IMG/VR virus record: IMGVR_UViG_3300013723_000002
Reading direction: 5' to 3' (one strand)
Source: a virus
Length of the DNA stretch: 64,000 nt
Position numbers and translations under genes: made by a program. The notes beneath the pieces were generated by a model. The model was not told the DNA's origin. It worked only from the letters and a program-made list of their open reading frames with translations, and did no database searches. Of this stretch, positions 44,534 to 44,948 are shown one piece after another. Position 1 is the stretch's first letter. Every line of letters starts with the position of its first letter.

Positions 44534-44586
44534 TACTTAAAACCTGTGCTATTTATCCTGGTAAATGTTGGCACGGCGTATGAGAG

Positions 44587-44603
44587 CGATTTTTAATTGT
44601 TCC
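44587..44603 (-). promoter_or_regulatory. late-unit motif copy 14 (sense: GGAACAATTAAAAATCG)
   Basis: GGAAC lies 70 nt upstream of the ATG at 44533. Confidence 0.5.
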
Positions 44604-44607
44604 AGGC

Positions 44608-44680
44608 AAAAAAAACCAGGTACTAAAATGGTGTACCTGGCCTTATTCAAGATCTGATACCGGGGAAAGTGGCATCAGGA
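44608..44680 (-). ncRNA. candidate small RNA 2 (~75 nt)
   Basis: TTGTGT (44710-44715), a 17-nt spacer, then TATATT (44687-44692) as promoter. Then a CTGATGCC...GGTATCAG hairpin and a strong terminator (CCAGGTAC...GTACCTGG plus U8). No ORF. Confidence 0.4.
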
Positions 44681-44752
44681 AAACAAAATATACGTTATTT
44701 AACGCTATTACACAATTACATTTTTACGCTTTAGCGTCTTTACACCATAGAC

Positions 44753-44844
44753 CAAAAGAAAAAGGCTGGACCTATGAATAGATCCAGCCTTCTCTCGCCA
44801 ATGCTCGCCTTGGAAGAAATCCCCGCAGATTTCTTATCTCGCCA
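44753..44844 (-). ncRNA. candidate small RNA 1 (~92 nt) with three GGCGAG repeats
   Basis: TTTACA (44875-44880), an 18-nt spacer, then TATAAT (44851-44856). Then an AAGAAATC...GATTTCTT hairpin and a terminator (GGCTGGATCTAT...ATAGGTCCAGCC plus UUUUUCUUUU). No ORF. Confidence 0.45.
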
Positions 44845-44906
44845 CCTGGCCATTATAAAATTAAAAACATTTTAATGTAAATACACCTTTTCTCTTTTAC
44901 GCTTAA

Positions 44907-44930
44907 CAAAAACCCGTTCACTACGGGCCT
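44907..44930 (-). terminator. terminator after 44949..45272
   Basis: GCCCGT-AGTGA-ACGGGT hairpin followed by TTTTTGTT on the minus strand. Confidence 0.5.
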
Positions 44931-44948
44931 TTTGTACTACATAAGGGA

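Follow-up and report, generated by a model that had tools for sequence, protein, structure and literature searches.

Anatomy of the gap between the 107-aa and 738-aa genes

The window analysed here is a 64,000-nucleotide (nt) stretch of viral DNA (IMG/VR record IMGVR_UViG_3300013723_000002), which represents 64 kb of a temperate Acinetobacter phage-plasmid of ~71-76 kb and leaves ~7-12 kb of the element outside. This report concerns a gap at 44534-44948 on its minus strand. The gap separates the last gene of the Cro-side early operon, encoding a protein of 107 amino acids (aa; 44949..45272, minus strand), from a 738-aa gene (42317..44533, minus strand) that is the first gene behind a late-type motif. 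No open reading frame (ORF) of at least 40 aa was found in the gap; the sole ORFs, of 37 aa (ATG) and 33 aa (TTG), lack a Shine-Dalgarno sequence and are not conserved in relatives. The ATG of the 37-aa ORF overlaps a -10 hexamer and its frame is broken by a 1-nt insertion in one relative (L143; relatives are given by L numbers), and a small-protein reading was rejected on both grounds. Also rejected were a 10-codon ORF in the second transcribed unit, whose ATG is lost in L017, and apparent leaderless ORFs in L001 and L022, which differ where a hairpin co-varies.

On the minus strand the gap holds, in order, an intrinsic terminator (T0), promoter P1, a predicted RNA of ~92 nt ending in terminator T1, promoter P2, and a predicted RNA of ~73 nt ending in terminator T2. 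T0 (44907..44928) is built from the stem GCCCGT-agtga-ACGGGT (44928-44912) followed by TTTTTGTT; its hairpin, reported by the terminator tool on the plus strand too, is invariant across six close relatives. T0 closes the upstream operon, and three terminators therefore stand in a row within the gap. Promoter P1 (44881-44852) has a -35 hexamer TTTACA (44881-44876), an 18-nt spacer and a -10 hexamer TATAAT (44857-44852), a match of 11/12 to the sigma-70 consensus and the sole match of at least 11/12 on either strand of the 64 kb. Shuffled sequence yields 2.05 +/- 1.5 such matches, so the score of P1 alone is not improbable. The promoter is overlaid by 8-nt-periodic GTAAA-type repeats (44852..44905), which read AAGCGTAA AAGAGAAA AGGTGTAT TTACATTA.

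The first transcribed unit, cassette 1 (44753..44845, minus strand), comprises a 5′ tail, a hairpin (SL1, AAGAAATC/GATTTCTT at 44835-44814), a linker, and the stem of T1 (44792-44761; 14-16 bp including G-U pairs) with the tail TTTTTCTTTT reaching to ~44753. Its RNA has a predicted minimum free energy of -37.4 kcal/mol and contains the hexamer GGCGAG three times, at 44843-38 in the 5′ tail and at 44809-04 and 44799-94 in the linker. Promoter P2 (44715-44687) consists of TTGTGT (44715-44710), a 17-nt spacer and TATATT (44692-44687). It matches the consensus at 8/12, under the threshold of the promoter-scanning tool, and the same hexamers and spacer recur identically in cassettes 6 and 7 of relative L041. 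The repeats over P2 (44687..44752) read GGTGTAAA GACGCTAA AGCGTAAA AATGTAAT TGTGTAAT AGCGTTAA. Cassette 2 (44608..44680, minus strand) begins with its own hairpin SL1 (CTGATGCC/GGTATCAG at 44678-44654; 8 bp, 9-nt loop), continues through the linker AUCUUGAAUAAGG and ends in T2 (CCAGGTAC/GTACCTGG plus T8 at 44642-44608), the stem of which spans 44642-44614 with 10 bp and is followed in the RNA by U8. From the end of T2 to the ATG of the 738-aa gene there are 75 nt.

A first-pass annotation of this DNA had described an ORF-free gap, located between early/regulatory genes and a late gene, with two autonomous promoter-to-terminator units and no Shine-Dalgarno-linked ORF in either. These points were borne out: the Cro-side operon lies upstream and the lysin-like 738-aa gene downstream; both promoters, the ~92-nt transcript with its three GGCGAG copies and hairpin, and the hairpin and U8 terminator of the second unit are present; and, as detailed below, the architecture recurs 2-7 times in relatives with pair-preserving stems and structured 5′ parts. 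The terminator of the first unit also stood as a stem with a U-run, although the stem had been given as 12 bp instead of 14-16 bp with G-U pairs. The annotation had missed T0, the 8-nt-periodic repeats at both promoters, a late-promoter-like motif at 44604-44565 and the multi-cassette arrays of the relatives.

Cassette arrays in relatives and the evolution of their predicted RNAs

We compared the region upstream of the 738-aa homologue in ten distinct relatives, whose 738-aa proteins are 40-47% identical. Gene order was kept throughout (helix-turn-helix (HTH) gene, ~290-aa gene, ~110-aa gene, gap, 738-aa homologue), and an array of 2 to 7 cassettes was always found between the ~110-aa gene and the late motif. 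The cassettes have a common build, in which repeats over a sigma-70-type promoter precede a transcribed part of 60-95 nt, a strong T-run terminator and then G[CT]CTGG. In total, 29 cassettes were delineated in ten distinct arrays. All 29 carry a -10 hexamer (TATATT, TATACT, TATAAT, TATAGT or TATTGT), which in most of them is preceded at 17-18 nt by a -35 hexamer, and a strong terminator follows 60-95 nt downstream in each. An independent scan with a promoter tool recovered 6/6 cassette promoters in L026 and 4/7 in L041. The gap in the window is thus the two-copy form of a variable cassette array at the early/late junction of this Acinetobacter phage-plasmid family.

Copy number and layout differ among the relatives. 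Two cassettes are present in the window lineage and in L040, and also in L001, L021, L022 and L037, where a 166-aa gene separates them. L039 adds a minimal unit to its two cassettes. Of the six cassettes in L026, two precede a 168-aa gene and four follow it, and the gap of 1,134 bp in L041 contains seven. Cassette 1 of L026 has in common with cassette 1 of the window its start (G[GA]CCAGGT[GA]G), a GAGAGA..GG tract and the tail TTTTTCTT..GGTC. The array-internal gene of 147-168 aa, of unknown function (L001 5326-5823, L021 2825-3322, L022 2852-3295, L026 2351-2857), lies 35-55 nt after a cassette terminator without a recognisable promoter and is absent from the window lineage; kinship of the 166-aa form with the two 167-aa genes of the window was ruled out, the sequences being unrelated. 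Tandem terminators were not found in more distant phages that have only a related lysin domain. Two DNA-pattern scans of sequence collections returned no family members, genome and metagenome collections contained no further full-length relatives, and the gap with its flanks had no DNA similarity to phage and plasmid collections.

All cassettes have the same predicted fold, consisting of a 5′ hairpin, 10-25 unpaired nt and the terminator, the stem of which extends into the T-run by pairing with a purine-rich tract. With transcription predicted to start 6 nt after the -10 hexamer, the 5′ hairpin begins within the first four nt of the extracted sequence. Upstream of the terminator, the sequences have more stable folds than their dinucleotide shuffles (mean z = -1.56, n=27; t-test p = 5e-6, a test that overstates the independence of the 27 cassettes because some sequences are related), and the 5′ part of cassette 2 reaches z = -4.7. 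Moreover, stem changes in the two alignable orthologous sets preserve pairing: the L001/L022 set has one double compensatory change and five single ones, and cassette 2 of the window set has three single ones, giving a total of one double and eight single changes with 0 pairs broken, although independent changes are few. In distant relatives, cassettes at equivalent positions have hairpins of unrelated sequence, and a hairpin is still present. The hairpin loops are without a common feature, and a reading as N-type boxB was rejected for this reason.

Sequence change is unevenly distributed along the cassettes. Between the window and L017, 14/507 fourfold-degenerate sites of the three downstream genes differ, compared with 11/100 positions in the RNA 5′ parts (Fisher p = 8e-4 against this neutral reference), 9/121 in the repeat and promoter segments (p = 0.03) and 0/79 in the two terminators. 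In the A. radioresistens lineage it is mainly the 5′ tail and loops that change fast; linkers are almost unchanged there, which is not significant at a neutral divergence of 2.8%. In L018, cassette 1 is of the L017 type and the hairpin of cassette 2 is of the window type; cassettes or parts of cassettes therefore recombine. A possible kissing pair between the loops of cassettes 1 and 2 (CGGGGA with UCCCCG) is weaker in L017-type relatives.

The emphasis that the first-pass annotation had placed on the triple GGCGAG did not hold up. Three copies within 50 nt have a window-wide chance of ~2.5e-4, with 17 copies of the hexamer in the window over both strands. In close relatives, however, copy 1 is replaced by GGTGAT or GGTGAG, and one of them has GGCGAT as copy 3. 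This third copy also lies within the extended terminator stem, where it belongs to the purine tract paired with the tail of the terminator. Because copies 1 and 3 vary and copy 3 belongs to the terminator, the repeat as such is not conserved. A weaker motif may be shared among the cassettes: in the first cassettes of L026, L039 and L041 the terminator is preceded by a GGCG[GA] element and by a GAGAGA..GG tract, and GGCGG occurs in 7/23 non-redundant cassettes against 1.5 expected, a count equal to the 95th percentile (7) of the best shuffled 5-mer.

No match of the cassette RNAs to a described RNA family was found. Neither the window nor six relatives contain a match to any Rfam family at gathering score, and those found in the gap at E <= 10 were at chance level, with none to C4. 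A search for transfer and transfer-messenger RNAs found nothing. As a check for RNA anti-CRISPRs, which are solitary mimics of a repeat from clustered regularly interspaced short palindromic repeats (CRISPR), the cassettes were locally aligned with two approximate type I-F repeats, standing in for those of A. radioresistens; the scores were no better than with shuffled repeats.

Promoter repeats, the late-promoter-like motif and the surrounding element

Both cassette promoters lie inside runs of 8-nt units with a GTAAA-like core, and AAAG[ACT]GTAA-like runs also occur in the window upstream of erf, of parA, of the operon of the HTH, 292-aa and 107-aa genes, and of the operons from 48232 and ~41010. 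The seven clusters (52525-52572 and ~56875-56920 on the plus strand; 48298-48267, 47083-47036 and 41070-41015 on the minus strand; and the two cassette promoters) each stand upstream of a gene or a cassette, with a period of 8 nt and with direct and inverted copies. Seven or more clusters are present in the complete plasmid NZ_CP110255.1, where the unit found in relatives, AATGAGTA, occurs at the promoters of erf, parA and the HTH regulator, at two further promoters and at both cassettes. On the opposite strand this unit reads TACTCATT and consists of an ACTC box with an AT-rich spacer of 4 nt. Inverted copies in relatives overlap the -10 hexamer and lie in the transcribed part. A 9-nt indel in relatives amounts to gain or loss of one repeat unit at P1, and in L143 the -35 hexamer of P2 reads TAGCGT, creating an additional AGCGTAA unit. 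The cassette promoters thus form one promoter class with those of early and maintenance genes, probably through a common DNA-binding protein, as the repeats suggest. A candidate for such a protein is encoded by the 85-aa ORF that follows parA (57609-57866). This protein has no Pfam match and no detectable similarity to ParG, and its single-chain AlphaFold2 model is helical and without a ribbon strand, at a predicted local distance difference test score (pLDDT) of 73, and is uninformative.

Directly after T2, the T-run abuts a TGGAAC element (44604-44599), which is followed by 28 nt, a -10-like hexamer CAACAT (44570-44565) and 31 nt to the ATG at 44533; the whole motif spans 44565..44604 on the minus strand. 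The sequence GCCTGGAAC that follows T2 is also kept after the final terminator of relatives with a protein identity of just ~45%. In its general form the motif reads (T/G)GGAAC-N28-YAnAnT with 28-31 nt to an ATG, the -10-like hexamer being TAAACT, TAGACT or CAAAAT in copies other than that of the gap. The window has 11 copies, each before a large ORF: ten on the minus strand (326, 4447, 6849, 12578, 16064, 17303, 25757, 31683, 34041 and 44604) and one on the plus strand (63740), most of them directly behind a terminator and T-run. NZ_CP110255.1 has 8 copies on the gene strand, and the motif also stands upstream of the 738-aa homologue in six relatives. Because the conserved TGGAAC element lies at about -41 to -46, an activator-binding position, and no -35 hexamer is present, the motif can be read as an activator-dependent late promoter; by its position and recurrence it is a candidate late promoter class of this phage-plasmid family. 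A sigma-54 reading of TGGAAC was rejected, the GG-to-GC spacing being 14 nt or absent and not 10, as was a reading as a promoter of an extracytoplasmic function (ECF) sigma factor, since the -10-like hexamer is 28 nt downstream and not 16-17 nt. The 738-aa gene has its own late-type motif and would therefore need no transcription from P1 or P2.

The element also carries maintenance and switch genes. A Rep3-type initiator (54245-55732) and a small ParA (56944-57606) accompany a CI-like S24 repressor (50564-51226, plus strand) and a divergent Cro-like gene (49942-50346); a serine recombinase gene and an Erf recombinase gene are also present, and nearly all remaining genes are on the minus strand. 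The 738-aa protein is encoded on many contigs of 70-76 kb, and its 90%-identity cluster includes 3 variants named as A. radioresistens proteins. Relatives at 40-47% identity occur on contigs of 65-82 kb from A. baumannii, A. pittii, A. calcoaceticus, A. nosocomialis and A. oleivorans, among them the complete plasmid NZ_CP110255.1.

On either side of the array the neighbours are conserved. On the right, the 738-aa protein matches phrog_6922 (E 4.5e-183) and, more weakly, PHROG families of endolysins and tail-associated lysins. On the left, the Cro-side early operon ends with the HTH gene (228 aa), the 292-aa gene and the 107-aa gene; the three proteins gave an HTH_3 match, matches to two PHROG families of unknown function and nothing else. 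The 107-aa gene has homologues of 113-122 aa at the same position in all relatives, at 23-30% identity, and this ~110-aa protein family, which always precedes the array, is restricted to these elements. The 107-aa protein had no Pfam, PHROG or PDB match. Its AlphaFold2 model (pLDDT 71) shows a beta-sheet followed by two helices, for which Foldseek returned no significant fold match, the top one being the anti-Thoeris protein Tad1 (E 0.11, template-modelling score 0.35).

Several further features of the window were recorded. The cI/cro intergenic region (50347-50563) is full of CCTATA..TATAGG-type palindromes, and these recur at 42114-42316, in the interval that separates the 738-aa gene from the first 167-aa gene; this interval may be another place that CI controls. 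The element carries insertion sequence (IS) insertions: its maintenance region contains two transposase genes, ISXO2-like and IS4/IS5-like, at 51361-52023 (minus strand) and 61063-61815 (plus strand), and an 88-bp direct repeat (63590-63677 and 61745-61832, 98.9% identity). At the end of the window, 63729-64000 (plus strand) is an inverted duplicate of 17314-17043 (minus strand), with 94.5% identity across 272 bp. Within it are a late motif and the opening ~190 nt of gene 16105-17235. The duplicate adjoins IS elements, lies ~5 kb from the serine recombinase gene (57873-58571), and may represent an alternative gene copy or an invertible arrangement. A low-GC island at 34700-37400 (28-34% against ~43%), on the opposite strand between late gene blocks, contains a gene for an HNH endonuclease domain protein of 426 aa and another, of 283 aa, with no known function, and is probably an acquired accessory module. 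Finally, the minus-strand gene at 9316-10518 encodes a 400-aa structural-region protein with a long collagen-like G-X-Y run.

Possible functions of the cassettes and comparison with known systems

We tentatively favour, with a confidence that falls somewhat short of even, the reading that the two units of the gap belong to a tandem array, specific to this family, of autonomous and co-regulated genes encoding stable small RNAs. The cassettes have the generic features of small-RNA genes, namely their own promoter, no ORF, a Rho-independent terminator and a structure maintained in evolution. In each, a sigma-70-type promoter inside the element's own 8-nt-periodic GTAAA-type (ACNC-box) repeats would fire a non-coding transcript of 60-95 nt. 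Starting with a 5′-terminal hairpin, this transcript would run through a short single-stranded linker, in many cases rich in purines, to a strong intrinsic terminator whose U-tail would be partly paired with the purine tract. Structure would thereby cap the RNA at both ends, and the RNA should be long-lived. The repeats, as putative operator sites, would link cassette expression to the regulator that presumably controls erf, parA and other early and maintenance promoters, and the RNAs would accumulate and work in trans, either pairing with transcripts of the host or of competitors or binding a protein. Promoter strength, the 5′-terminal hairpin, the fixed short length and the paired-tail terminator together point to an RNA protected at both ends as the selected product, which favours autonomous small-RNA genes. 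Furthermore, because the late gene has its own activator-type motif directly after T2, the cassettes would be units of their own and no leader of the late operon.

Several observations weigh against this reading. The RNA 5′ parts change faster than fourfold-degenerate sites, unlike typical conserved small-RNA seeds, and the U-tails are largely paired, which is atypical for Hfq-dependent small RNAs. Duplex energies of the cassette RNAs with 150 start regions of the window were no better than those of shuffles, and exact complementarity of at least 10-12 nt was at chance level in the window, in NZ_CP110255.1 and across relatives. The loop of cassette 2 has an 11-nt match to four sites in the collagen-like gene at 9316-10518, and this gene was rejected as its target since a relative with an altered loop keeps the old gene sequence. 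In addition, the last unit of L039 is minimal, apparently a promoter and a terminator hairpin alone, and in L001-type loci the 166-aa gene, without a promoter of its own, is placed 35 nt behind a cassette terminator in a leader-like arrangement.

If the RNAs are functional, they would form a new family-specific set of phage-encoded small RNAs in Acinetobacter phage-plasmids, a little-studied group with unmapped regulatory circuits. The set would be unusual in its variable tandem copies, its shared operator type, its structure kept despite fast sequence change and the protection of both ends. The 11-copy late-promoter-like motif, the repeat-marked early/maintenance regulon and the cassette array between them offer handles on the expression programme of the element.

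A credible, if unlikely, alternative follows the logic of lambda PR′-tR′, in which transcripts would stop at T1 and T2 until a phage antiterminator allows read-through to the late genes; the short RNAs would then be by-products, possibly co-opted as regulators in the manner of StxS of Shiga toxin (Stx) phages. The array does occupy the position of lambda PR′-6S-tR′, directly after the last early genes and directly before the first late-type gene, with which it is co-oriented, and it likewise combines conserved promoters and terminators with variable RNA bodies. The reading also fits the 166-168-aa genes of L001, L021, L022 and L026, which stand 35-55 nt behind a cassette terminator with no recognisable promoter. 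Yet a TGGAAC-N28-TAnAnT motif precedes the late gene and each of ten other ORFs, in most cases after a terminator, and late expression would therefore not need read-through. Neither a Q-like nor an N-like protein was detected among the three upstream genes by Pfam, PHROG and PDB sequence searches and, for the 107-aa protein, a fold search. Nor do the 5′ hairpins share a loop or sequence by which an RNA-binding antiterminator could recognise them, and repeating promoter and terminator 2-7-fold brings no obvious gain for antitermination. A terminated leader can also be a functional small RNA, as StxS illustrates (PMC7547250), so the reading as small-RNA genes and the lambda-type one can overlap. 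Even if the RNAs were by-products, the locus would be a clean natural example of a temperate element walling off its late genes.

Selection may instead act on the DNA, either on the repeat-bearing promoters as protein sites or on transcription and termination beside the late promoter, and the RNAs would be functionless; this too we hold to be unlikely, though worth serious consideration. As protein sites, the repeats would be dispersed operator or centromere sites of a ParG/omega-like ribbon-helix-helix protein, or a titration sink. Their 8-nt period, with direct and inverted copies at several promoters including that of parA, agrees with this, as do the small ParA gene followed by the 85-aa ORF, and the copy-number changes and indels that shift whole repeat units. 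Sites alone, however, would need neither near-consensus hexamers, nor a compensated 5′ hairpin, nor a terminator spaced at 60-95 nt in every unit, and the 85-aa ORF has neither a Pfam match nor a ribbon strand in its single-chain model. As transcription and termination, the cassettes would insulate the late region or occlude the TGGAAC site. The contact between the T2 T-run and that element speaks for such a role, but T0 already insulates the late region from early transcription. The fast evolution of the RNA bodies and the L039 unit with promoter and terminator only fit the DNA-level reading, which leaves the hairpins unexplained.

A bolder form of the small-RNA reading, which we consider rather unlikely, is that of a modular battery of very stable small RNAs in which the exposed 5′ tail and hairpin loop are under diversifying selection and cassette turnover changes the targets. 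We know of no described system that works as a modular small-RNA specificity battery. If it held, an RNA-based specificity system at the early/late junction would target host or competitor transcripts or proteins, and could act in exclusion or heteroimmunity against related phage-plasmids or in host takeover.

The first-pass annotation had drawn an analogy to the immunity RNAs of phages P1 (c4) and P4 (CI), to which the N15 CA RNA may be added; such RNAs pair with an early or antirepressor transcript of the same element and silence it. We judge this improbable here, although a CI/Cro switch is present in this temperate phage-plasmid, the RNAs combine small size with structure, and their loops and 5′ tail vary fast among close relatives in the manner of antisense specificity determinants. 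Rfam, C4 included, gives no match. Leader processing is replaced by a separate promoter and terminator for every RNA, with T0 stopping the upstream operon before P1. Complementarity to sense transcripts was not above chance in the 64-kb window, the complete relative NZ_CP110255.1 and other relatives, although the part of the element outside the window could still contain a target. Chance or decay, a leftover of deleted genes with fortuitous promoter-like and terminator-like strings, could account for one match of at least 11/12 per 64 kb (within the shuffles) and for the 8/12 of P2, but is extremely unlikely because the same ordered architecture occurs 29 times in ten distinct arrays between flanking proteins only 23-47% identical, and terminators are invariant within the lineage while adjoining sequence varies.

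Among known systems, the phage P1/P7 c4, P4 CI and N15 CA RNAs are cut from the leader of the operon that they control and pair with nearby sites there. The cassette RNAs resemble them as small structured RNAs of temperate phage-plasmids and satellites, in which small changes in exposed regions set specificity, and differ in that each has its own promoter and terminator, with no complementary site and no Rfam match found. The omega heptad arrays of pSM19035 are one parallel to the promoter repeats. The precedent for these repeats is ParG of plasmid TP228, a ribbon-helix-helix protein that binds arrays of tetramer boxes (PMC3130281). As in these systems, short boxes with a fixed 7-8-bp period lie in direct and inverted orientation over several promoters of a plasmid with a small ParA, and the box in relatives is ACTC plus a 4-nt AT-rich spacer; unlike in them, the putative boxes here also front short non-coding transcription units.

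The 6S RNA of lambda PR′-tR′, the Stx-phage version of which (StxS) can act in trans (PMC7547250), offers a third parallel. There as here, fewer than 100 nt separate a strong promoter from an intrinsic terminator, the pair stands directly between early and late genes in the same orientation, and it yields a short RNA with a terminator hairpin. In contrast to the single lambda unit, the arrays have 2-7 tandem units, a recurrent motif precedes the late genes themselves, searches among the three upstream genes revealed no Q-type antiterminator, and the promoters lie in repeat arrays common to maintenance and early genes. The fact that the cassettes come in variable numbers also recalls tandemly encoded multi-copy small-RNA families. 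Qrr1-5, OmrA/B, LhrC1-5 and the Rsm small RNAs keep a conserved seed or protein-binding motif in every copy. The cassettes are like them in using the same promoter type and overall fold in every copy, in having their own terminators and in varying in copy number between relatives. Their 5′ parts, however, differ completely between copies, and what they share is the architecture, together with a weak enrichment of GGCG[GA] and a purine tract before the terminator.

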